Positions 2,745 to 60,642 of a DNA stretch of 64,000 bases are shown piece after piece (within the stretch, counting starts at the first letter, position 1; every line of letters starts with the position of its first letter). Where the stretch lies: positions 117,207 to 181,206 of the forward strand of contig URLO01000001.1 in the NCBI GenBank assembly GCA_900548625.1, read 5' to 3'. Both the position numbers and the translations under genes were made by a program. The notes beneath the pieces were generated by a model, which had not been told where the DNA came from, made no database searches, and worked only from the letters and a program-made list of their open reading frames with translations. The stretch is from an uncultured Eubacteriales bacterium (GTDB lineage: Bacteria > Bacillota > Clostridia > Oscillospirales > Oscillospiraceae).

Positions 2745-3891
2745 TTGCCTCACCTCCCTTCCGGAAGCGCTTGGCGTAATCGGCGTAGGCGCAGGATATG
2801 TCCTGATAGATGGCGCGCAGGGTGCGGAGCTTGGGATCTCCAGCAGTCAGACCGCCGTACATTTTCTTGTAGTCGCGCGGCCGCGCCATTCCGTCCATCT
2901 GAATGAACATCTTGCGGTACTGCTTGGCGATCTTGCGCTTATGCTCCGTATTGAAGAAGTCTCCCGGGCGGACGAACAGCATCTCCTTCAGGAGCGCACG
3001 GTAGTCCTTGGTGTCCTCGCCCTCCAGCTCCCGGCGCTTCCTTGTGGTGCGGTGGAACATTTCGCTGTCCCAGTACAGCATGGCAAGGTAGGCATTCGGC
3101 TCGCGCCGAAGGACGCGCTCCATGAGAGATGGGTCATATTCGCCCAGGTGTACCAGCACGGGTACGGTATCAACGGAGAAGAACTGCGACACGCGCAGCT
3201 GATTCCGATTGACGCCGACCTGATACATCTGCAGGTAGACCTCGGGGACTTCGATGCGCTGGTCTCGCAGGTACAGCCAGACGTCCGCCGTCTTCCAGTC
3301 GTAGATGGGATAGATGGTGTTCGTGCCGGTGATGCCCTTTGCGCCCATATTCAGTGCCGCCATGTATTGGAGCCGCTGAATGGACTCTGCCGCGCGGACG
3401 CCGGTGATCATGATGCCGTCCATCGTCACGCGAGGCAGGAAGGATTGATAGTTGTCGATCCTTGGCCGGAGCTGCGGGTGATTGCGGATGGCAAAGGGCG
3501 GCGGCTGCCGCACCCAAGCATCGCGCTTGCGTCGATCCCAGCAGACGAAGGTTTCATCGCTGGACAGCTCATTGAGACAGCTGAAATGCTTGACCTCGAT
3601 ACACCACCATTGAAACTTGGCACCGGCAAGCAGGAACTTCTTCCGCCACGCCTTGGTCGTTGCTTCAATGGAATCGAAGATTGCCTCCTCGTCCACGAAA
3701 AGGACGGTCAACTGCGAGGGATTGATCTCTCCAGCCTGGATCAGCTTATAGGTCAGGTCGGCAAGGACGATGCTGTCCTTGCCGCCGGAAAACGAGAGGT
3801 ATACGGGGACGCCGTTGGAAAATACGTTCTTGATCCGCTGGCGCGCCGCAGTCACAACGTCGATGTCTGAGCTGATGCGCTTTACAGCCAT
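2737..3891 (-). CDS. phosphoadenosine phosphosulfate (PAPS) reductase family protein (IbrA/DndC-like PP-loop ATPase)
   Basis: PP-loop motif SFSGGKDS near the N-terminus; 384 aa. Overlaps both flanking genes (translational coupling). Confidence 0.7.
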   Translation of the reverse strand: MAVKRISSDIDVVTAARQRIKNVFSNGVPVYLSFSGGKDSIVLADLTYKLIQAGEINPSQLTVLFVDEEAIFDSIEATTKAWRKKFLLAGAKFQWWCIEVKHFSCLNELSSDETFVCWDRRKRDAWVRQPPPFAIRNHPQLRPRIDNYQSFLPRVTMDGIMITGVRAAESIQRLQYMAALNMGAKGITGTNTIYPIYDWKTADVWLYLRDQRIEVPEVYLQMYQVGVNRNQLRVSQFFSVDTVPVLVHLGEYDPSLMERVLRREPNAYLAMLYWDSEMFHRTTRKRRELEGEDTKDYRALLKEMLFVRPGDFFNTEHKRKIAKQYRKMFIQMDGMARPRDYKKMYGGLTAGDPKLRTLRAIYQDISCAYADYAKRFRKGGEANG

Positions 3892-4487
3892 ATCCGCTCA
3901 CCACATTTCGGGCAGAGGATAAACCTCTTAGCGGGCTCGGTGGAAGACGCCGTGCCGCTCTGTGCGGGTGCGACTTCCTCAGCCTGCGCCGCAGCAGCTT
4001 CTTCCCGGGCGGCGTATTTCTCGCGCGTCTCGGTGATGGCCGCAGCCTGCTCCGGCTCAATGGTGCCGTACTCAAGCAGGGCGTCGCTGGCTTCGTCAGC
4101 CTCCATCACCATCGCACGGAGAAGATCCTCTTCGTAGCCGGGAATGTCCAGGTCGTCTTTCAGCTCAAGGATAAAAGCGTCCAGCGCGGCCAGATCGTCA
4201 ACGCCCAGGTCAAAGACGCGGTTATCAGCCAGCATGAGCTTTTTCTTCTCCGCCTCAGTCAGTCCAGACACGACATAGCAGTCCGCCTCTGTGCGGCCGA
4301 GGGACAGCAGCGTTTCATACAAGCCGTTGCCGGCGAGAATAACGCCGTCCTCGTCGACCACGATGGGGCGGATCTGGCCGAACATTTCGACAGAGCGTCG
4401 GAACTCCTTCAGCTGCTTGTCGGTGTGCATTCGGACATTCCGATCCGGTCGCCGCAGCTCGGTCAGAGGCTTCTTTATGACCTTCAT
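3882..4487 (-). CDS. ParB-like nuclease domain protein with C-terminal zinc ribbon
   Basis: KKPLTELRRPDRNVRMHTDKQLKEFRRSVEMFGQIRPIVVDEDGVILAGNGLYE (ParB/Srx N-domain); C-terminal CPKCGERIW; acidic middle. Confidence 0.6.
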   Translation of the reverse strand: MKVIKKPLTELRRPDRNVRMHTDKQLKEFRRSVEMFGQIRPIVVDEDGVILAGNGLYETLLSLGRTEADCYVVSGLTEAEKKKLMLADNRVFDLGVDDLAALDAFILELKDDLDIPGYEEDLLRAMVMEADEASDALLEYGTIEPEQAAAITETREKYAAREEAAAAQAEEVAPAQSGTASSTEPAKRFILCPKCGERIWL

Positions 4488-5266
4488 GCCTGCACCCCCT
4501 TCAAAAAGGCGCGAGCACTGTCGATCTTTTCAGCTGCCGCAAGGACGATGCCGGGGTCGATATCGTAGACCTCACGCCAGCCGTTCTCGATGCCGCCCGT
4601 CCATTGGCGGGCGGGCCACGGGTGAGTGCCGCACAGATATCCGTTCTTCCAGCCGTAGATCGGCGGAAGCGGGAGCTGATGGTAGTGAATATAGGCAAGG
4701 ATGTGCTCATGCTTCCACGCAGCGAGCGGGCTGAATCGCGTAACACCTTTGCCATCGGTATAGATATTGCTGTTGCGACCGACATAATTGCCGTCCGCAC
4801 GGCGGCGGCCGAGAATGATGACGTCCAGCTCGTGCGCCTTGAAGTATTCACGCTGCGCTCGGTGCTGCACGATAGAAAACCATCGTCCGGCCGCGGCGGA
4901 GTCCTTGGGGAAAAGCATCTCTTGATGCTTCACCAGCCAGTCGATATCCTGATGCGTGTTGATGACTTCGCAGCCTGCCGGCTTATGCTTCTCGATCCAT
5001 GCGGCAAAGGCGGGGTATTCCAGGTCGCACACGCCGATCATGCTATCGGTGACGCCGGCCGCTTCACAGAGTTTGCCAAGGACAATGCTGTCCTTACCAG
5101 CGCTCCATGCGTAGGCAGCACACTTCCCAGCCGTCACGGCCTTGATGTCCGCCACGGTCGCGGCAGTAAGTTCGTCCAGCTCTGCGCGGGAAACGGCTTC
5201 TTCGATAGTTGCAACGGCTTCCAGCCATGCACTGTTGTCGATCCTCTGCTTCCTTCCGAGGCTCAT
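4484..5266 (-). CDS. PAPS reductase family protein (second copy)
   Basis: SAGKDS PP-loop motif. Start chosen at the internal ATG 5266 (MSLGRKQRID...), which forms an ATGA overlap with the upstream symporter stop. The 5' extension in the track looks non-coding. Confidence 0.65.
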   Translation of the reverse strand: MSLGRKQRIDNSAWLEAVATIEEAVSRAELDELTAATVADIKAVTAGKCAAYAWSAGKDSIVLGKLCEAAGVTDSMIGVCDLEYPAFAAWIEKHKPAGCEVINTHQDIDWLVKHQEMLFPKDSAAAGRWFSIVQHRAQREYFKAHELDVIILGRRRADGNYVGRNSNIYTDGKGVTRFSPLAAWKHEHILAYIHYHQLPLPPIYGWKNGYLCGTHPWPARQWTGGIENGWREVYDIDPGIVLAAAEKIDSARAFLKGVQA

Positions 5267-52260: not shown

Positions 52261-52306
52261 AAAAACCCCGTTTTCGGATGCTTTCCATCCGAAAACGGGG
52301 GTTTTT
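52261..52306. terminator. bidirectional intrinsic terminator between dsdA and LysR
   Basis: aaaaaccccgttttcggatg-ctttc-catccgaaaacgggggttttt. Confidence 0.65.
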
Positions 52307-53245: not shown

Positions 53246-53352
53246 AGGGAAGCACCTCCGGGAACAGAAATACTATTGTGCCCATTATGGCACAAAATCC
53301 GCGCCGCGTCAAAGGGTTTCCGCGCCGAAGGGCGTCGGTGCGTATAAAAAAA

Positions 53353-53647
53353 CAGGGAACTGCCGTGATGGCAGTTCCCTGCTTCAGTCTGTCAAAAAAC
53401 CTCGTAGAGTTTCGCCGCGCACGGCGAAATAAAATGTAAATCGGTTTTGTCTGGCGGCGTGTACGTCAGACAAAACACGCTACGCCCGGCAAGTGTGGAA
53501 TTTGTGCGCAAAGCGCGTACAAATTATGCGCGCAGCCGGGTGCAGCCTTTTCAAACGCGAACCCAGCTCCGCGGTTCGCGTTTGAGAGCTTGTCAAAAAG
53601 ACTTTTTGACAAGCTCAGCAGGGAACTGCCGTGATGGCAGTTCCCTG
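53353..53647 (-). ncRNA. copy A of a ~300-nt multi-hairpin repeat element (candidate structured sRNA/3'UTR element), minus-strand orientation
   Basis: Bounded by an identical palindromic hairpin at both ends (cagggaactgcc-gtgat-ggcagttccctg). On the minus strand the left hairpin is followed by TTTTTTT. Four internal stems are retained in copy B with compensatory changes. Confidence 0.6.
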
Positions 53648-53674
53648 CTTGAATCGTCAGGATATTCGGCGGCG

Positions 53675-54940
53675 TCAGGCCTGCTCACCGGTTCCGTTCA
53701 GGTAGTCGAGCATCGTGCAGATATACACCTTGGTGATGTTCACGACGTCCAGAACCTCGGCGGTCTCGTTGTAGGAGTGGATGCCGGCGGCCGTAGACGG
53801 GCCGTATTGCAGGGTGGGGATGCCTTCGTAGCGGAAGAAGCGTGCATCGCTGCTTGCCCACTGATAGGTGCGGGTGAGCGGCTCGTTCCAGATTTCCTGC
53901 ACGTTTTTCGCCAGGATCTCCACGATTTCCGCGGTACGCGGCGTGTTGTTCGGCTCGGAGCGCCAGCCGAAGGAGTACTCCACACCGCTGACACCGGCTT
54001 CACGGATGATGCGGCAGATCTCCTCCTCCACGGTCAGCGTCGAGATGCCCAGCGGAACGCGGATATCGACCTCAGCCTCGGCATAGTCGGGGACCATGTT
54101 GATCTTGGTGCCGCCGCTGATCTTGCCGATGTTCACGGTGCAATGGTTGATGACGTGCGCCGCGCCCTTTGCGCTCAGACGGCGGCGGGCGTTGTTCTTG
54201 GAGTCCTCCATGACGCGCGCGATCTGCTCATCATAGCGGGCGGGGATGTCGCGAAGCTGCGTGATGCCGGAGAGGACTCTCAGCAGCTTTTCAATGGCGT
54301 TGTCGCCGACAAAGGGAGCCAGACTGCCGTGCGCCGGCGTACCGGTGGCGCTCAGCTTCAGCCAGCAGCAGCCCTTCTGACCGATCTCACAGTTGAAATA
54401 ACCGGAGGGCTCGGCAATGAGACAGGCGTCGCCGCGGATGGTGCCGCTCTCGACCAGCCACTTCGTACCCCAGGAGCCGCTGACTTCCTCGTCGGGCACA
54501 ACGGTCAGAACGAGCTCACCGTCAAGCGGAACCTTTCCGTCTGCCAGAAGACCCATGGCAAAGAGCAGACCGGCCAGACCGCACTTCATATCAGATGCGC
54601 CGCGGCCGAAGATCGTACCGTCGCGGATGTCACCGCAGAACGGGGCGAAGTCCCACTTTTCCAGATATCCGGGAGGGACAACGTCGGCGTGACCGTTGAG
54701 GATCAGGCGGCGGCCGCCCTTGCGGCCGAGCGTTGCGACGATGTTCGGCGTCGTGGGCGTCGGGCGGAGGACTTCATAGGAAATGCCGTGCTTGTCCAGA
54801 TAGCCGCAGATGAAGGAAGTGATGGCTTCCATTTCACCGGGAGGGTTGACGCTGGGGATCTTGATGAGATCGCTGCACAGCTGGAGCAGCTCGTCCTTGT
54901 GCTGTTCCACCAGGGCGCTGAAGTGGTTATGGTCAAACAT
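53675..54940 (-). CDS. M20-family metallopeptidase (ArgE/DapE/carboxypeptidase-like)
   Basis: HADVVP, GRGASDMKCG, EE(V)SG and dimerisation domain; ATG at 54940 (track start 55009 is TTG). Confidence 0.75.
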   Translation of the reverse strand: MFDHNHFSALVEQHKDELLQLCSDLIKIPSVNPPGEMEAITSFICGYLDKHGISYEVLRPTPTTPNIVATLGRKGGRRLILNGHADVVPPGYLEKWDFAPFCGDIRDGTIFGRGASDMKCGLAGLLFAMGLLADGKVPLDGELVLTVVPDEEVSGSWGTKWLVESGTIRGDACLIAEPSGYFNCEIGQKGCCWLKLSATGTPAHGSLAPFVGDNAIEKLLRVLSGITQLRDIPARYDEQIARVMEDSKNNARRRLSAKGAAHVINHCTVNIGKISGGTKINMVPDYAEAEVDIRVPLGISTLTVEEEICRIIREAGVSGVEYSFGWRSEPNNTPRTAEIVEILAKNVQEIWNEPLTRTYQWASSDARFFRYEGIPTLQYGPSTAAGIHSYNETAEVLDVVNITKVYICTMLDYLNGTGEQA

Positions 54941-55482
54941 TTGTGCTTGCCTGCTTTCTTTGAAATTAACCGGGCAGTGCCGCAAATTAAGATAAGGTCG
55001 CCGGGTCAATTAAAACTATACACCAGTGTACCGTCAAATTTATAGAGGAATTTGCAACAAGATTTTTCGGGCCGACTTGGTGAAAGTGCGCAGTCGCAAA
55101 AGTGCAGAAAATGGAATTTGCGCGGAAAACAGCTGTTTTTTGAACAAAAAAAGCATGTACGGTGCGAAAAAACAGGCGCAGAATATGGATAGCAATATAC
55201 AGAGTAAACCGCTGTTTTTTGCGGCTTTTTTTGTGCATAATTCATGAAAAATGCATAAAAAACCAAAACGACGGACAAAAGCAAGGAAGTGTTCGCACCA
55301 TGAGAACAGGCGTGGCGCGCGAAACAGTGCTGCGGGAGACGCGCGGATATGGGAAACAATATGGAATTTCATATTAGTCAAAACTGCCACATGACGCTAT
55401 AATTTTCATATAGCCTTTCGGCAATATGACTGTTGGCATAGGCATATCGGAACACGGCTATATTTGAGGAGGGATTGAGAAC

Positions 55483-56427
55483 ATGTTATTGAAAGAAATT
55501 CTGAATGTCTACGACCTGCTGGACAGCGCGACTGCGAACGGTGATGCGGTAGCAAACTATCTGAAGAGCATCCGTGCAGACGCGAACGTCGAGGTCGTTC
55601 ACATCGACACCCCCAAGGGCTCGACCGATGTTGTCCGCGTGCTTGTCGCCGGTGCAAACGGACGCAGCGTGGGTGGTTCCGCTCCCACGATCGGCCTCAT
55701 GGGCTGGCTCGGCGGCATTGGGGCCCGTCCCGGTGCAGTCGGCTATGTTTCTGACGGCGACGGCGCTCTGGTGGCGCTGGCGATCGCGGCCAAGCTGCTG
55801 GATATGCAGAACAAGGGCGACCGTCTCGAAGGCGACGTCTATCTGGCAACGCACATCTGCCCCTGCGCACCGACCCGTCCCCACGATCCGGTGCCCCTGA
55901 TGGACTCCGAACCGTTCCGCGATCAGGTCAAGCGCGAAGCGTTCGCAAGCGCAGAGCAGATCGATGCTCTGATGTCCTGCGACACGACCAAGGGAAACCA
56001 CATCATCAACGCCCGCGGCTTTGCGATCTCCCCCACCGTCAAGGAAGGCTACATCCTGAAGGTCAGCAAGGATCTGCTGGATGTCTATCAGAATACGGTT
56101 GGAGAGCTGCCCAAGGTCTTTGCCATCACGAATCAGGACATCACGCCCTACGGAAACGGCATCGATCACCTGAACGGCATCATGCAGCCCAGCACCATGA
56201 CCTCCGCGCCGATGGTTGGCGTGGCGATCACGGCCGTATCCGCCGTCCCCGGCTGTGCCACTGGCGCGACCCATTTCACGGACGTGGAGGAAGCGGCTCG
56301 CTTCATGCTCGAGGTAGCCAAGGGCTTCGGCGCCGGCAAGGTCAAGTTCTACGATGCCGCCGAGTATGAGAAGATCCTGCACCGTTACGGTTCCCTGCGT
56401 CATCTGCAGACCATGGGAAATGCGTGA
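55483..56427 (+). CDS. DUF1177-family protein
   Basis: 314 aa, Gly/Ala-rich soluble protein. Sits in the conserved DUF1177-AroM-OPT neighbourhood. Confidence 0.45.
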   Translation: MLLKEILNVYDLLDSATANGDAVANYLKSIRADANVEVVHIDTPKGSTDVVRVLVAGANGRSVGGSAPTIGLMGWLGGIGARPGAVGYVSDGDGALVALAIAAKLLDMQNKGDRLEGDVYLATHICPCAPTRPHDPVPLMDSEPFRDQVKREAFASAEQIDALMSCDTTKGNHIINARGFAISPTVKEGYILKVSKDLLDVYQNTVGELPKVFAITNQDITPYGNGIDHLNGIMQPSTMTSAPMVGVAITAVSAVPGCATGATHFTDVEEAARFMLEVAKGFGAGKVKFYDAAEYEKILHRYGSLRHLQTMGNA

Positions 56428-56428
56428 T

Positions 56429-57121
56429 ATGATGATGCAGAAGATCAAGATCGGAGCAGTGACCATCGGTCAGTCTCCCAGAACGGATATTACAGAGGAT
56501 GCGGGGCGCTTTTTCGGCGACCGGGTCGAGCTCCTGGAATTCGGGGCGCTGGACCGTTACACGCTGGAGGAGGCCAAGCAGCTCCAACCGATCCCCGGTG
56601 ATTATGGTCTCACCAGCCGCCTGCGCGACGGCACGGAGGTGCATTTTTCAAGAGGACAGGTCATGGAGGAGATGCAGCGCGGCATTCACCTTCTGGAGGA
56701 GCGCGGCGTAAAGCTGATCCTTGTCTTCTGCACGGGCGCGCTGCATGGGCTTCATTCGAATGTACCGATGCTGGAGCCGAATCAGCTCCTGCGCGCCATG
56801 GCGCCGCTTCTGACCCAGAAACCTCGCATTCTGACGCTGACTCCGTCCGAGACTCAGGTGCAGCAGTGCGAGCGGCGCTGGAAGGAAGCGCAGCCGGACT
56901 TTGAATTTACGACCTTCCCGGCTTCCCCGTATTTGGGAGATCCCTTCACGGAGGAACTGGTCAGCCGCATCAATGCCGTTGAAGACGCAGATCTGGTCAT
57001 CATGGACTGCCTCGGCTTCTCCGCCGCGATGCGCGACCGGCTGCAAGCACGGATCAATAAAAACATCCTGCTGCCAAGGTCACTTCTGTTCCGTGTAGCA
57101 TGCGAATTGCTCGGAATATAA
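56429..57121 (+). CDS. AroM-family protein
   Basis: N-terminus KIKIGAVTIGQSPRTDI is characteristic of AroM. Confidence 0.6.
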   Translation: MMMQKIKIGAVTIGQSPRTDITEDAGRFFGDRVELLEFGALDRYTLEEAKQLQPIPGDYGLTSRLRDGTEVHFSRGQVMEEMQRGIHLLEERGVKLILVFCTGALHGLHSNVPMLEPNQLLRAMAPLLTQKPRILTLTPSETQVQQCERRWKEAQPDFEFTTFPASPYLGDPFTEELVSRINAVEDADLVIMDCLGFSAAMRDRLQARINKNILLPRSLLFRVACELLGI

Positions 57122-57155
57122 AAAATTTGAGAAGAAAAAACTACGGAGGGAAATT

Positions 57156-58862
57156 ATGAGTTCAAATGAGAACAAAGACGTTACCGCCGCAAAAGAACCG
57201 GTCATGGTTACCATTGAGGCCGGTAAGCAGGTGGACGTCCGCACGCTGAAGGCATCGGATCATGTAAAGGTATTTGACCCGATGATTCTTTTGGTCACCA
57301 TTCTTGCATCCTGCTTTGGCGCGATCATCGACCTGGAGCTGATGACCCGCGTTGGCGTAAGCCAGAACACCTCGATCATCGGCGCGCTGCTCGCCGTCGT
57401 CATCAGCATGATCCCCGGCAAGCTCTTCCGCCGCTTTAGGAACGTTCATGCACAGAACCTCGTTCAGACGTCCATCTCCGGCGCAGCTTATGCCGCCGCA
57501 AACGCAATGATCCTCCCGATCGGCATTCCCGTGCTGATGGGCAGACCCGACCTGATGCTCCCCGTGCTGTTCGGCGTGACGCTCGCCGCCATCGTGGACT
57601 GCTTCCTGGTCTACAAGGTATTTGACTCCCCCATGTTTGCCGCAACCAATCCGTTCCCGTCCGGCATCGCCACCTCTGAGACGATTCTGGCACTTGCAAA
57701 CCGCGGCAAGCGTTCCCTGCTCCTGTTCGTCGGCATGGGCGCCGGCATCGCAGGTAAGGCCGCCGGCATCCCGATGGACCTGTTCGGCGTGTCTTGGTTC
57801 GCCAACCTGCTGGCGATGATGGCGTTCGCTCTCGGCAGCATTGCCAAGGGCAGCCTGATCCCCATGTGGACGGCGGCTATCGGCGCGGACGCTGTGCCGA
57901 CCATGATCACCTACCTGCCTCACGGCATGATGGTCGGCGCGGGCCTGATCTCCCTGATTCAGGCGGCGCTCGTCCTCGGCAAGAAGAGCAAGAAGAGCGC
58001 AGAGAAGGCCGCTCAGGATACAACCGGCGAGCGCTCCGTTACCATGGAAAGCATGCGCAAGTCCCTCGGCATTGGCTTCGTGCTGTTCCTCGGCATTGCG
58101 CTCCTGCTGGCATTCATCACCGGTATCTACGCCGAAATGAGCACTGGTCAGCTCGTGGCATGGCTCCTCTTCGCAGCCTTCGCAGCCATCTCTTCCGAGC
58201 TCGTCTGCGGCCTGTCCTCGATGCACTCCGGTTGGTTCCCCGCAATGGCAACGGCTCTGATCTTCCTCGTGGTCGGCATCATGATGGGCTTCCCCGCAAT
58301 GCCGCTTGCAATTCTGGTTGCCTACACCTCTTCCACCGGCCCTGCGTTCTGCGACATGCAGACCGACCTGAAGTGCGGCTGGATCCTTCGTGGCCGCGGC
58401 GCGAACCCCGAGTTCGAAAAGGCCGGCCGCAAGCAGCAGTTCATCTGTGAGCTGCTCGGCTGTGGCGTTGCATTCGTGATGGTCCTCCTGCTGGCGAACA
58501 CCTACTTCGACCAGGGTCTGTTCGTTCCCACCACCAAGACCTTCATCGCCACCATCGACGCAGGCGCGAACGCCGAAGTCGCGAAGTGGCTGCTCATCTG
58601 GGCGATCCCCGGCGCAGTGCTCCAGCTCATCGGCGGCCCCCGCCAGCTCGGCATCATGTTTGCTACCGGCCTGCTGATCGGCAACACGCGCAACGGTCTG
58701 ACCGTGCTCGTCGCCCTCTTGATCCGTATTGTCGCGACCCGCTGGGACAAGAAGAAGGCACAGGATCTTCTGTACATCCTCGGCGCTGGCTGCATTGCCG
58801 GTTCCGCTCTGTATAGCTTCTTCGCCTCTACGCTGAAGCTGACGAACATCAACAAGAAGTAA
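57156..58862 (+). CDS. OPT-family oligopeptide transporter
   Basis: 568 aa with ~15 TM helices and an OPT-like glycine-rich helix pattern. Confidence 0.75.
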   Translation: MSSNENKDVTAAKEPVMVTIEAGKQVDVRTLKASDHVKVFDPMILLVTILASCFGAIIDLELMTRVGVSQNTSIIGALLAVVISMIPGKLFRRFRNVHAQNLVQTSISGAAYAAANAMILPIGIPVLMGRPDLMLPVLFGVTLAAIVDCFLVYKVFDSPMFAATNPFPSGIATSETILALANRGKRSLLLFVGMGAGIAGKAAGIPMDLFGVSWFANLLAMMAFALGSIAKGSLIPMWTAAIGADAVPTMITYLPHGMMVGAGLISLIQAALVLGKKSKKSAEKAAQDTTGERSVTMESMRKSLGIGFVLFLGIALLLAFITGIYAEMSTGQLVAWLLFAAFAAISSELVCGLSSMHSGWFPAMATALIFLVVGIMMGFPAMPLAILVAYTSSTGPAFCDMQTDLKCGWILRGRGANPEFEKAGRKQQFICELLGCGVAFVMVLLLANTYFDQGLFVPTTKTFIATIDAGANAEVAKWLLIWAIPGAVLQLIGGPRQLGIMFATGLLIGNTRNGLTVLVALLIRIVATRWDKKKAQDLLYILGAGCIAGSALYSFFASTLKLTNINKK

Positions 58863-58935
58863 TCAAATCCAAACCGTGCCGGCCCCGAGCAACACTGCAA
58901 AGGGCCGGCATTTCTTAGAAAGGCAGATAATCAAA

Positions 58936-59886
58936 ATGAAACAGGAAAGCTTGAAGGATATTGCAAAAAGAATGCTGGTGACCTGCCTCGGCGCAAAAGC
59001 CGGTGAGCAGGTGCTCGTGGTGACGGATGATACGCGCCTGAGCATCGGTCAGGGAATCTATGCGGCGGCGCAGGAGCTCGGCTGTGAGGCGATGCTCATG
59101 CAGATGGCGCCCCGCGAGGTGGCAGGCGCGGAGCCGCCTGCGGCGGTGGCGCGCGCCATGCAGGAGGCAGATATTGTGATCTGCCCGACGGCAAAATCCC
59201 TGACCCATACCAACGCCCGCATCAAGGCTGTGGAGCACGGCGCCAGAGTGGCGACCATGCCCGGCATCACGGAGGAGATGTTCTATCAGGGCGCCATCAC
59301 GGCTGACTATGAGCAGGTCAAGCGGATGACCGAGACCATTTCGGATATGCTGACAAAGGCAAAGACGGCGCGCATCGTCAAAGAGGACTGTGAGCTGACC
59401 ATTCAGCTCTCCGGACGCAACGGCGTCATCAGCTCCGGCGTCTACCGCAACCCCGGCGAGTCCGGCAACCTGCCCTCCGGTGAGGCGTACATCGCACCGC
59501 TCGAGACGCAGTCCGAGGGCGAAATGATCATCGACGGCACGATGGTCGGCATTGGCAGACTTTCCAGCCCGCTGCACGTCACGGTTCGTGAGGGCAAGCT
59601 CGTCGCCATCGAGGGCGAAAAGAGCGAAAAGGTCGGCATCCTTCTGGAAACGCCCGAGAACGCCACGCTCTGTGAGCTGGGCATCGGCACGAACGAGAAG
59701 GCGCTGCTGTGCGGCGTCACGCTCGAGGACGAGAAGATCTACGGCACGGTTCACATTGCCTTTGGCACGAACACGTCCTTCGGCGGCATCAACAAGGCGG
59801 CATGCCACATGGACGGCATCATCCTGAAGCCGACGCTCTATCTCGACGACAAGATGGTCATCTCCGACGGCGAATTTACGCTGTAA
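58936..59886 (+). CDS. putative aminopeptidase (M29/AmpS-like)
   Basis: 316 aa; belongs to the conserved peptide-utilisation neighbourhood; motif-level assignment is weak. Confidence 0.4.
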   Translation: MKQESLKDIAKRMLVTCLGAKAGEQVLVVTDDTRLSIGQGIYAAAQELGCEAMLMQMAPREVAGAEPPAAVARAMQEADIVICPTAKSLTHTNARIKAVEHGARVATMPGITEEMFYQGAITADYEQVKRMTETISDMLTKAKTARIVKEDCELTIQLSGRNGVISSGVYRNPGESGNLPSGEAYIAPLETQSEGEMIIDGTMVGIGRLSSPLHVTVREGKLVAIEGEKSEKVGILLETPENATLCELGIGTNEKALLCGVTLEDEKIYGTVHIAFGTNTSFGGINKAACHMDGIILKPTLYLDDKMVISDGEFTL

Positions 59887-59897
59887 AGCAAAGACAA

Positions 59898-60197
59898 AGA
59901 GCCCAACCCGAACGGGTTGGGCTCTGAGCGTGTCAAAATAGTCTTTTTGACACGCTCTCAAACGCGAACCGCGTGGCTGGGTTCGCGTTTGAAAGGGCCG
60001 CGCCCGCCTGCGCGCATAATTTGTGCGCAGTGTGCGCACAAATTCCACACTTGTCGGGCGTTTTGTGTTTTGTCCGATGTACACGCCACCGGACAAAACA
60101 AATTGACATTTTATTCGCGCCTGCGGGCGCGAACTCTACGAGGTTTTTTGACAGTCTAAGAGCCCAACCCGAACGGGTTGGGCTCTTGCTTTTTTTG
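59898..60197 (+). ncRNA. copy B of the ~300-nt multi-hairpin repeat element, plus-strand orientation
   Basis: Reverse complement aligns to copy A at ~85% over ~250 nt. Terminal palindromic hairpins agagcccaaccc-gaac-gggttgggctct at both ends, the 3' one followed by TTTTTTT. Confidence 0.6.
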
Positions 60198-60222: not shown

Positions 60223-60642
60223 TCAGATCTCCGCCTTCGTCTCGCAGTACAGGCAGCGGTAGGTGCGCTTTTCGCGGTCGGTCAGTGTAAAGACCTGCGG
60301 AAGCTCCTGCTCGACCGAGGTGATGCAGCGGGGGTTCTTGCAGCGGATCACGTTCGTGATGCGCTCCGGCAGCTTCAGCTGGCGCTTTTCCACGCGCTGG
60401 CCGTCCTTGATGAAGTTGACGGTGATGCCGGGATCGACATAGCCGATCACGTCCCAGTCGAGATCCAGAATGCGGTCGATCTTGATGATGTCCTTGCGGA
60501 CGAGCTTGTTGCTGACCACGTTTTTCAGCAGCGCCACGGTGCAGTCGAGCTTGTCCAGACCCAGAATGTTGTAGAGATCCATGGCCTTGCCGGCGGTGAT
60601 GTGGTCAATGACGATACCATTGGAAATTGCATCAATAATCAT
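60223..60642 (-). CDS. pyrI: aspartate carbamoyltransferase regulatory subunit
   Basis: 139 aa; C-terminal Zn-binding CKNPRC...CLYC. Confidence 0.85.
   Translation of the reverse strand: MIIDAISNGIVIDHITAGKAMDLYNILGLDKLDCTVALLKNVVSNKLVRKDIIKIDRILDLDWDVIGYVDPGITVNFIKDGQRVEKRQLKLPERITNVIRCKNPRCITSVEQELPQVFTLTDREKRTYRCLYCETKAEI

Follow-up and report, generated by a model that had tools for sequence, protein, structure and literature searches.

Mobile elements that use DNA hairpins as targets have been described in Staphylococcus. IS1272 and TnSha1, a unit based on IS1272, insert into such hairpins (frequently terminators) in either orientation and repeatedly at the same hairpin, and IS1272, a member of the IS1182 family, targets terminator hairpins of any sequence (PMC4923244; PMC5678879). 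A hypothetical model, model (b) of PMC5678879, predicts a duplication of the stem-loop if its 5' feet are attacked. IS1272 is autonomous, 1.9 kb long, codes for a DDE transposase, and removes or replaces the stem-loop with no target duplication. In contrast, the MITE analyzed here is ~233 bp long and non-coding, and the entire stem-loop is duplicated at its insertion sites; still, its termini (GAGnCTGTCAAAAA) are of the same type as those of IS1272 (GAGTCTGGGACATAAA). For IS1182, duplications of 0-60 bp are given in ISfinder.

The known bacterial MITEs (Correia/NEMIS, RUP, BOX, SPRITE, ERIC, MITEAba12) are small, non-coding, multi-copy intergenic elements with terminal inverted repeats and target duplications; if transcribed they are highly structured, and they can change 3'UTRs and termination (PMC10969869). 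Their duplications are short and of fixed length (2-9 bp), whereas here a whole palindrome of 15-44 bp is duplicated. SPRITE has a terminator-like sequence of its own, while the hairpins of this element are duplicated host hairpins. The 2024 review of these elements makes no mention of a MITE that duplicates a target hairpin (PMC10969869).

DNA or RNA stem-loops at gene ends (terminators, REPs, attC) also take part in the target choice of group IIC introns and of IS110/IS1111, but those elements produce no target duplication. Those systems need a ribozyme and a reverse transcriptase, or a DEDD transposase with a guide RNA for one sequence; for our element we found no match to an intron or RNA family, and the targeted hairpins are unrelated in sequence. 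REP/BIME/REPIN sequences were considered and rejected as a class, being palindromic units of 20-40 nt without target duplication (an associated RAYT gene is part of their definition), while the element has ~233 nt with terminal inverted repeats and a target-site duplication (TSD), and no RAYT gene was noticed close to any of its copies.

The window, i.e. the whole 64,000-nt stretch of DNA that was analyzed, contains two copies of the element, A and B. A repeat search and alignment showed that they align over 222 nt at 85% identity, in agreement with the positions and identity given in a preliminary description of this DNA (Table 1). Its account of the ends was accurate as well: each copy has the same palindromic hairpin at both ends, the hairpin differs between the copies, and a T-run follows the distal hairpin in both. 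In copy A, the M20 peptidase gene's terminator palindrome forms the proximal hairpin, with its T-run now split off, and the distal hairpin with the T-run would, judging by its sequence, make a still functional intrinsic terminator. For copy B, the distal hairpin and T-run were called an intrinsic terminator by a terminator scan.

Table 1. Positions in the window of copies A and B, their parts, and neighboring features.
Feature	Positions	Strand	Basis or remark
Unoccupied target, bidirectional terminator palindrome AAAAACCCCGTTTTCGGATG...CATCCGAAAACGGGGGTTTTT	52261-52306	.	sequence; filled in other strains
LysR promoter-like site	53312-53284		beyond copy A distal hairpin
Copy A TSD copy 2 (distal) and original T-run	53346-53384	-	TSD 53353-53384; T-run 53346-53352
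Copy A element body, 233 nt	53385-53617	-	nhmmer full-length match
Copy A right terminal repeat	53385-53401	-	
Copy A H5	53412-53427	-	stems backed by covariation
Copy A H4	53444-53476	-	stems backed by covariation
Copy A H3, outer and inner stem	53483-53543	-	covariation; inner palindrome 53499-53525
Copy A H2	53551-53585	-	stems backed by covariation
Copy A IRL/H1	53586-53616	-	stems backed by covariation
Copy A TSD copy 1 (proximal target hairpin), AAGCAGGGAACTGCCATCACGGCAGTTCCCTG	53619-53650	-	exact 32-nt direct repeat of 53353-53384
M20 peptidase gene	53675-54940	-	copy A neighbor
M29-family aminopeptidase gene	58936-59886		directly followed by copy B proximal hairpin
Copy B TSD copy 1 (proximal target hairpin), AAGAGCCCAACCCGAACGGGTTGGGCTCT	59897-59925	+	exact 29-nt direct repeat of 60158-60186
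Copy B element body, 232 nt	59926-60157	+	T at 59925 common to body and TSD
Copy B IRL/H1	59926-59957	+	
Copy B H2	59958-59992	+	
Copy B H3	59999-60060	+	inner palindrome 60018-60044
Copy B H4	60067-60099	+	
Copy B H5	60115-60132	+	
Copy B right terminal repeat	60142-60157	+	
Copy B TSD copy 2 (distal) and T-run	60158-60196	+	TSD 60158-60186; T-run 60190-60196
pyrI	60223-60642	-	converges on copy B distal terminator

Copies A and B are members of a large family of dispersed repeats that reaches tens of copies per genome in gut bacteria of the Oscillospiraceae. An exact 20-mer from H3 was found in at least 86 genome loci, almost all from Oscillospiraceae/Clostridiales gut MAGs, with at least 7-12 loci from each of several genomes among the matches listed; within the loci found by this 20-mer nhmmer detected 127 copies. 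An exact 23-mer from the 3' end occurred in at least 120 metagenome loci, all MITE-like, and Vescimonas fastidiosa MM35 has the element in 20 places. Vescimonas also has REP-like families alongside the element. Lengths of family members vary from 200 to 310 nt. The ORFs that overlap the element are spurious, with no conserved coding capacity; the family alignment has indels of lengths not divisible by three, and palindromes make up the sequence. Internal modules were seen to be swapped between copies.

The element has imperfect terminal inverted repeats, IRL GAGnnTGTCAAAAA and IRR TTTTTTGACAGnCTG; the reverse complement of IRR, CAGnCTGTCAAAAAA, has ~12-14 matches to IRL over 15-16 nt. Every well-preserved copy has the layout hairpin X, TGAGC..TGTCAAAAA...TTTTTGACAGnCTG, hairpin X, where X is different at each site.

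We found that the hairpin on each side of the element is a duplicate of its target site, the terminator palindrome of the host gene, with a length that tracks the palindrome. The repeat is kept in 40 of 63 near-complete copies (median 29 bp, range 15-44), ends within ~2-3 nt of the palindrome ends, and correlates in length with the palindrome (r = 0.77). The terminator hairpins are the target and are not carried by the element, since their sequence changes from copy to copy and matches the one hairpin present in the empty allele. Thus, of the earlier suggestion of a MITE-like element carrying a terminator, the MITE-like part stands, while the hairpins turn out to be duplicated target. We also observed that hairpin loops flip between alleles.

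Empty and filled alleles were found at several sites. Loci L011 and L063 are reciprocal, empty versus filled, at two sites. The copy B site is empty in L216, with one hairpin, identical to the proximal hairpin of copy B; L211, L212, and L215 have the element there as the window does, and in L213, L214, and L217 the site holds an element in the opposite orientation that is 94% copy-A-like. The peptidase protein is identical in all these strains (L211-L217), whether the site is empty, filled, or inverted. The unoccupied palindrome in the window sits between a convergent PALP-domain gene and a LysR gene. At this terminator L352 has a reverse-orientation element with a ~36-bp hairpin duplication, L354 has the element with one hairpin copy lost, and L345 and its relatives have the element plus a nested 1.2-kb cargo, while in L347 and L353, as in the window, the site is unoccupied.

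These alleles bear directly on the idea that no mobile DNA is involved, and that a terminator was duplicated locally, or a REP/BIME-like palindromic array formed, through recombination or gene conversion. Palindromes are recombinogenic, and the loop flips, the module swaps, and the REP-like families of Vescimonas would all fit such an origin. However, at dozens of loci the element has sharp, invariant boundaries beside site-specific hairpins that are unrelated to one another; it also has terminal inverted repeats, and REP elements have no target duplications. Moreover, empty alleles are clean, and one site received independent insertions of both orientations. With its empty, filled, and inverted alleles, the copy B site effectively refutes this explanation, which we hold to be extremely improbable. 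We consider it likely that copies A and B are two insertions of a non-autonomous DNA transposon, a MITE with IS1182-family-type ends that duplicates terminator hairpins. It is small and non-coding, with terminal inverted repeats, many copies, and a site-specific TSD that is single in the empty alleles.

With respect to the internal stems, we observed covariation well beyond chance. Across 35 pairs in 72 family members, 96.7% of the cells were paired compared to 83.5% in shuffles; double changes were seen in 273 cells, compared to 65 in shuffles and 17-69 with partners slid, and compensatory changes occurred in 21 of the 35 pairs. Between the two copies, both arms of the stems quoted in the preliminary description (H1, H4, and H5) are indeed changed, and compensatory changes beyond chance are likewise seen in copies elsewhere; instead of four stems, though, there are at least five internal stems and an outer stem around H3. 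The stem cells comprise 2386 Watson-Crick pairs, 22 G-U, 38 A-C, and 44 other mismatches (2490 cells). With G-U at 22 against 38 and 44, there is no strand signature; stems with Watson-Crick pairs only and no G-U excess on either strand are expected for DNA palindromes. The covariation had been described as typical of a selected RNA structure; the covariation itself is real, and neither strand shows an excess of G-U.

The alternative in which the fold is selected as RNA is that of a structured small RNA or 3'UTR cis-regulator that acts in trans or on the mRNAs of the peptidases upstream. Besides the strong covariation, several features would suit it. In 58 of 72 copies the loop of H5 reads TGCG (TCCG and TTCG occur as variants), and on one strand several loops of H1 resemble UNCG, which could reflect an RNA-level function on the + strand of the element; the distal hairpin and T-run would set a defined 3' end, and the invariant unpaired TTCCACACTTG could act as a seed. 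On the other hand, a promoter scan found no sigma-70-type promoter inside the element, and Rfam gave no match (best 29.9 bits versus a gathering score of 55, E = 0.065). Genes adjoining the copies are unrelated (transporters, FtsH, rlmB, a sigma factor, LysR/PALP, pyrI, and others), and orientation with respect to terminated and neighboring genes is unbiased, the element being antisense about as frequently as sense. Such diversity of neighbors and unbiased orientation mean that there is no link to peptidases. In addition, within one species and with identical neighboring proteins, some strains have the element and others lack it, and its flanking hairpins derive from the target. Together with the lack of G-U enrichment, these observations go against the proposed regulator of peptide catabolism, and we find an RNA of this kind very unlikely.

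The ends of the MITE match those of the IS1182 family both in terminal sequence and in the left-end hairpin. The comparison used annotated IS1182-family elements and 34 IS1182-family copies from IMG/VR; the relatives were ISKpn6, ISSau3, and members from Enterococcus, Aerococcus, Rhizobium, and Phocaeicola. The family consensus G(A/G)GGCTG(T/G)..A-rich is common to the MITE, and ~30 of the 34 copies begin with [GC][AG]G[GA][CG]TG, as the MITE does. For example, termini such as GAGGCTGTGTGAAAAC and CAGACTGTGTAAAAAC compare to GAGGCTGTCGAAAAAC and CAGACTGTCAAAAAAC in the MITE, and 13-14 of 16 positions are identical to copies L421, L415, and L360, a likeness that spans ~14-16 nt only. In both groups the left end folds on itself, the terminal repeat pairing with its complement to form a hairpin (H1 would be the counterpart of this hairpin in the MITE), and the flanks favor palindromes or contexts of an A-run next to a T-run.

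The differences concern the target and the coding capacity. In copies of IS1182-family elements, the flanking sequence is a split palindrome or a 4-bp repeat (GGCC or GACC) instead of two whole hairpins; in the characterized members the hairpin is replaced or split, or a duplication of 0-4 bp is made, while the MITE duplicates the hairpin whole. Duplication of a whole palindrome was absent from all of the ~40 IS1182-family copies inspected. Since no characterized member, among those examined here and in the literature, duplicates the hairpin, this behavior has no verified precedent in the IS1182 family. The family members encode a DUF772/DDE_Tnp_1/DDE_Tnp_1_6 transposase; the MITE encodes nothing, and no such gene was found beside any copy. 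We found no autonomous partner or transposase in the window, in ~3 Mb of copy-flanking DNA, in 376 kb of the Vescimonas replicon, or in IMG/VR, and tblastn with the IS1272 transposase detected no homologue in any locus carrying a copy; a gene that acts in trans may lie in other parts of the genomes.

The lack of an IS1182-type gene near any copy and the absence of whole-palindrome duplication in the inspected family copies speak for movement by another structure-specific enzyme, with the likeness of the termini coincidental. Candidates would be a different IS family, a Cas1/casposase-like integrase, or an unknown cruciform-specific integrase. CRISPR repeat lengths overlap the range of 15-44 bp, and a CRISPR repeat duplication is of similar length. 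Cas1-type integration makes a duplication of fixed length; here the length varies with the palindrome. Against another enzyme, no cas1 or other integrase gene was seen linked to the copies. Furthermore, the fit of termini and left-end hairpin to the IS1182 consensus would have to be accidental, IS1272 already targets hairpins independently of sequence, and the possession of defined terminal inverted repeats points to a dedicated transposase. We rate another enzyme as unlikely.

For an IS1182-type MITE, we propose that a trans-acting transposase binds to the imperfect terminal inverted repeats. The insertion point would be the foot of a G+C-rich palindrome, in most cases an intrinsic terminator, with the structure rather than the sequence being read and either orientation allowed. 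One strand transfer would occur on each side of the palindrome, in the simplest case at the 5' feet of a cruciform-like target. Gap repair would then leave a copy of the whole stem-loop on each side of the element, so that the hairpin makes up the target-site duplication, with a duplication length set by that of the hairpin (15-44 bp). The distal hairpin copy, which retains the T-run, should still terminate; the proximal copy has no T-run, so transcripts should read through the element, and in older copies this hairpin would decay. H1-H5 would be conserved as Watson-Crick DNA palindromes, probably required for transposition, possibly as binding sites for the transposase or a host factor.

A further proposal joins two parts: an undescribed mode of transposition, in which a structure-reading transposase, IS1182-type or not, attacks both feet of a cruciform-extruded terminator and so copies a stem-loop of any length, and a strongly conserved hairpin core with UNCG-like loops that is more than DNA for transposase binding and acts as a functional RNA, installed by the element in the 3'UTRs of many genes. 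We think this combination unlikely. If the functional-RNA core were true, the element might serve, e.g., as a stabilizer, or as a dsRNA-forming module at convergent genes.

The element belongs to a new family of MITEs with IS1182-type ends, in which the target-site duplication is an entire terminator hairpin. Reading both strands and aligning the copies bore out the two diverged copies of the preliminary description, copy A after the M20 peptidase gene and copy B after the M29-family aminopeptidase gene, as a ~233-nt sequence with 85% identity over 222 nt. The stem differences on both arms listed in that description are real. So is its observation of one hairpin at both ends of each copy, differing between the copies and with a U-run at the 3' one: the T-run follows the distal hairpin only, and in copy B this hairpin scored as an intrinsic terminator. 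Besides the palindromes H1 to H3 (table), the element has two further ones, H4 and H5.

Features of the element family and of repeats on the Vescimonas replicon (window positions unless a locus, L, is named)
Feature	Sequence	Position or loci	Strand
Copy A, element body		53385-53617	-
Copy A, site-specific 32-nt hairpin, direct repeat		53619-53650 and 53353-53384	
Copy B, element body		59926-60157	+
Copy B, site-specific 29-nt hairpin, direct repeat		59897-59925 and 60158-60186	
LysR/PALP terminator, empty in the window		52261-52306	
H1 palindrome	GAGCTTGTCAAAAAGTCTTTTTGACAAGCTC		
H2 palindrome	TCAAACGCGAACC...GGTTCGCGTTTGA		
H3 palindrome, inside outer stem	AATTTGTGCGC-n4-GCGCACAAATT		
MITE left terminus	GAGGCTGTCAAAAAG or GAGCGTGTCAAAAAAG		
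MITE right terminus, as reverse complement	CAGACTGTCAAAAAAC or GAGGCTGTCGAAAAAC		
~310-nt variant		L225, L252, L254, L258, L260, L288, L321, L326	
REP-like repeat sites		L090 23709-23745; L223 7383-7412	

Every well-preserved copy had the arrangement hairpin X-(T)GAGC..TGTCAAAAA ... TTTTTGACAGnCTG-hairpin X, in most cases with a T-run after it; the sequence of hairpin X was unrelated between sites. The hairpin repeat was kept in 40 of 63 near-complete copies, with a median length of 29 bp (range 15-44 bp); its ends fell ~2-3 nt or less from the palindrome ends, and its length followed that of the palindrome (r = 0.77). In older copies the proximal hairpin was partly or wholly gone. The hairpins on either side of the element arose as target-site duplications of terminator palindromes, and the existence of empty alleles proves the direction of events, the hairpin first and then the insertion. 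Of the suggestion that a MITE-like element carries a terminator, the MITE therefore stands, while the terminator is target, not cargo. Retrotransposition with the terminator carried along was rejected, as the hairpins originate from the target. IS1202-type elements make fixed duplications of 24-29 bp; this type was rejected because the lengths here vary with the palindrome. The IS200/IS605, REPIN and IS110 mechanisms are not known to leave a target duplication, and they were rejected for this reason.

We compared alleles of the copy-B site (the M29-peptidase/pyrI terminator) among contigs encoding an identical M29 peptidase protein. The site was empty in locus L216, with one hairpin and a T-run, and L211, L212 and L215 had the same insertion as the window. 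In L213, L214 and L217 the occupant was another member of the family, with 94% identity to copy A; it was inserted in the reverse orientation, and its hairpin duplication was slightly longer. The LysR/PALP terminator, empty in the window, was filled in L352, filled with the loss of one hairpin in L354, and filled in L345 and its relatives by an element with an extra 1.2-kb cargo. The orthologous loci L011 and L063 were reciprocally empty and filled at two sites. Given these polymorphic sites, the family has recently been active in the window's own species.

The cargo in L345 (~3580-4790; also in L346 and L348-L351) is an AT-rich segment inside the MITE. Promoter-like and terminator-like signals lie within it, as does an ORF of 157 aa that has a hydrophobic segment at its N-terminus. 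The cargo had no Pfam or Rfam match and no obvious terminal repeats or duplication. In L352 the same MITE lacks this cargo, and the arrangement in L345 is reminiscent of a mobile insertion cassette bordered by the MITE ends. In L354 (~3430-3450) the proximal hairpin and the element tip are missing, apparently through a deletion that joined CGTCAAAAACC of the flank to the terminal TGTCAAAAAACC of the element; here target flank and terminal repeat share microhomology. The loop of a terminator hairpin was inverted between the alleles of L347 and L353 (GGAAAGC vs GCTTTCC, ~3440-3485); in the flanks of L023 7364-7130, the two hairpin copies bordering a single MITE differed in the same way. Such inversions suggest frequent loop flipping or templated repair inside terminator palindromes.

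Exact-word scans, a profile search and blastn revealed a dispersed repeat family rather than a pair. The H3 20-mer matched at least 86 loci in a one-genome-per-species collection; among the matches listed, the hosts were nearly all Oscillospiraceae or Clostridiales gut MAGs, and single genomes had 7-12 or more matches. A profile made from full copies gave 127 matches in the loci listed for this 20-mer, and the 3'-end 23-mer was found in at least 120 metagenome loci. In the cultured Vescimonas fastidiosa MM35, one replicon had the element at 20 places. Two copies, in L004 and L008, came from contigs of MAGs with the labels Bacteroidaceae and Muribaculaceae, the other hosts listed being exclusively Oscillospiraceae or Clostridiales; mis-binning or rare transfer is the likely cause.

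The family is modular. A ~200-nt subfamily has no H2, another variant has the H3 module swapped out, and in a ~310-nt variant the 3' half of H4 is exchanged for a different segment of ~90 nt, which holds its own terminator-like hairpin, AAAAAGTGCCGGCGGCACTTTTTT. Two loci with this last variant, L254 and L326, are orthologous to the copy-A site, where the variant sits on copy A's hairpin; its presence there in other strains suggests that copies exchanged modules or that the variant inserted independently. A ~60-nt foldback adjoining a terminator in L024 (7588-7650), made of two inverted element 3' ends around the H5 loop, is a mini-derivative or a rearrangement product of the element.

Pairing was analyzed by RNAalifold and pair counting in 72 copies, for 35 pairs in H3 (outer and inner), H4 and H5. 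Paired cells made up 96.7%, compared to 83.5% in shuffles, and there were 273 double-change cells compared to 65 in shuffles and 17-69 in slid controls; pairing is therefore maintained. Substitution in copies elsewhere was compensatory rather than random, at 21 of the 35 pairs across the 72 copies. The pairs were almost purely Watson-Crick (2386, along with 22 G-U, 38 A-C and 44 other), with G-U no commoner than A-C, the mismatch that equals G-U on the opposite strand. A rough, ORF-based census placed 40 copies between convergent genes, 13 in sense only (to the gene reading into the copy) and 19 in antisense only, with 11 undetermined; reading of the flanks made L048 a clear antisense case. 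The element is tied to no single transcriptional orientation. Near-pure Watson-Crick pairing and unbiased orientation fit palindromes maintained at the DNA level, and fit an RNA helix less well. Such palindromes could bind proteins or be extruded as structures, or intra-palindrome templating could homogenize them.

An RNA role would suit the H5 loop, which is TGCG in 58 of the 72 copies though the H5 stem varies, and several H1 loops, which are TTCG, TCCG or TACG; we give such a role a low probability. The Rfam scan of the element gave no match, and the promoter scan detected no sigma-70-type promoter within it; a candidate made of TTGACA in H1 and CATAAT in H3, spaced 20-23 nt, was rejected, as the scan finds none. 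With no Rfam match, no promoter, nearly pure Watson-Crick pairing and unbiased orientation, the proposed sRNA is not supported. Nor is the proposed link to peptidases and peptide catabolism, since the neighbors are diverse: those annotated in Vescimonas include inorganic diphosphatase, a sigma factor, FtsH/RlmB and NhaC, among others.

IS1272 of the IS1182 family targets terminator hairpins whatever their sequence, inserts in either orientation and can hit one hairpin repeatedly, but it deletes or replaces the stem-loop, leaving no duplication (PMC4923244; PMC5678879). In a model in PMC5678879, the stem-loop would be duplicated by attack on its 5' feet; except as this model, hairpin duplication is absent from both papers, and a 2024 review of prokaryotic MITEs does not describe a hairpin-duplicating variant. 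The transposition mechanism of IS1182-family elements is given as unknown (PMC6199540). With the IS1272 transposase, taken from plasmid pC02 of S. aureus, we assembled annotated IS1182-family elements and 72 IMG/VR loci encoding relatives. Common to these elements were termini of the form G(A/G)GGCTG(T/G)..A-rich, for example GAGGCTGGGACAAAAG, GAGGCTGTGTGAAAAC, CAGACTGTGTAAAAAC and GAGGGTGTGTCAAAATG, the last from an element whose name is IS1182-family transposase of Phocaeicola and which has DUF772, DDE_Tnp_1 and DDE_Tnp_1_6 domains. The MITE termini match these at 13-14 of 16 positions. The left repeat of many IS1182 members can fold back onto the sequence immediately internal to it, exactly as in H1 of the MITE.

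Copies of IS1182-family IS in IMG/VR were flanked by split palindromes, by an A-run and a T-run (A-run, IS, T-run), or by 4-bp GGCC/GACC repeats. In L362, L410, L415, L429, L405, L387 and L392 the IS typically lay between palindrome halves or between a left A-run and a right T-run, as expected if the IS replaced the terminator stem-loop; L411 and L412 had a 4-bp GACC repeat instead. The family resemblance is thus good, while duplication of the whole hairpin distinguishes the MITE from these copies.

A partner IS would be recognized by termini of the type GAGnCTGTCAAAAA. No transposase or autonomous element with the MITE's ends was found in any data searched (loci, part of the Vescimonas replicon, IMG/VR, metagenomes). 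In the fetched loci, no terminal-repeat pair 500-5000 bp apart marked a partner; palindromic direct repeats around segments of 0.5-6 kb were REP-like repeats only, a Y-R-E-K motif screen of long ORFs returned housekeeping genes only, and tblastn of the IS1272 transposase against all loci found no partner. The annotation of Vescimonas pMM35_01 over 0-376 kb had no transposase, and the element copies on this replicon were decayed. In IMG/VR, the 16-nt left terminal repeat gave chance matches only and the H3 20-mer gave 0. Blastn against plasmids and phages hit only Vescimonas and one unannotated phage contig; the metagenome loci listed for the 3'-end 23-mer (at least 120) held only MITEs and deletion derivatives, and a protein search from the IS1182 copy with the most similar terminus led only to close relatives of Phocaeicola type. 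Our inferences are the enzyme, the cruciform geometry and the effects of insertion on transcription.

Vescimonas fastidiosa NZ_AP023416.1 also has several abundant REP-like palindromic repeat families unrelated to the MITE (L087, L090, L221-L224), such as CGTAGGGGCCGATGCCTACATCGGCCCG, GGGCGGGCGGACAGAGGCGTCCGCCCCTACG and the 52-nt unit GAATCCCCCAGTCACGGCTTCGCCGTGCC... This 861-kb record (L223, L224) is labelled plasmid pMM35_01. Its gene content includes dnaA, dnaN, recF, gyrB, gyrA, rnpA, rpmH and numerous genes for tRNA synthetases, so that it behaves as a chromosome or chromid would, not as a plasmid.

The false lead of a peptidase-linked riboregulator is removed. The same family will turn up again in scans of Oscillospiraceae genomes, where it is also a cause of broken MAG assemblies. 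How DNA structure directs target choice is poorly understood, and the family supplies natural insertion junctions by the dozen; with alleles of one hairpin that are empty, filled or inverted, the cut positions relative to the palindrome can be read directly, and the duplication outcome formerly drawn only as a model is seen. Each insertion should lengthen a 3'UTR by ~260 nt, and insertion between convergent genes should create overlapping antisense 3' ends, with termination restored. Since the insertions are polymorphic, terminator function in these abundant gut commensals can be studied as a natural experiment.
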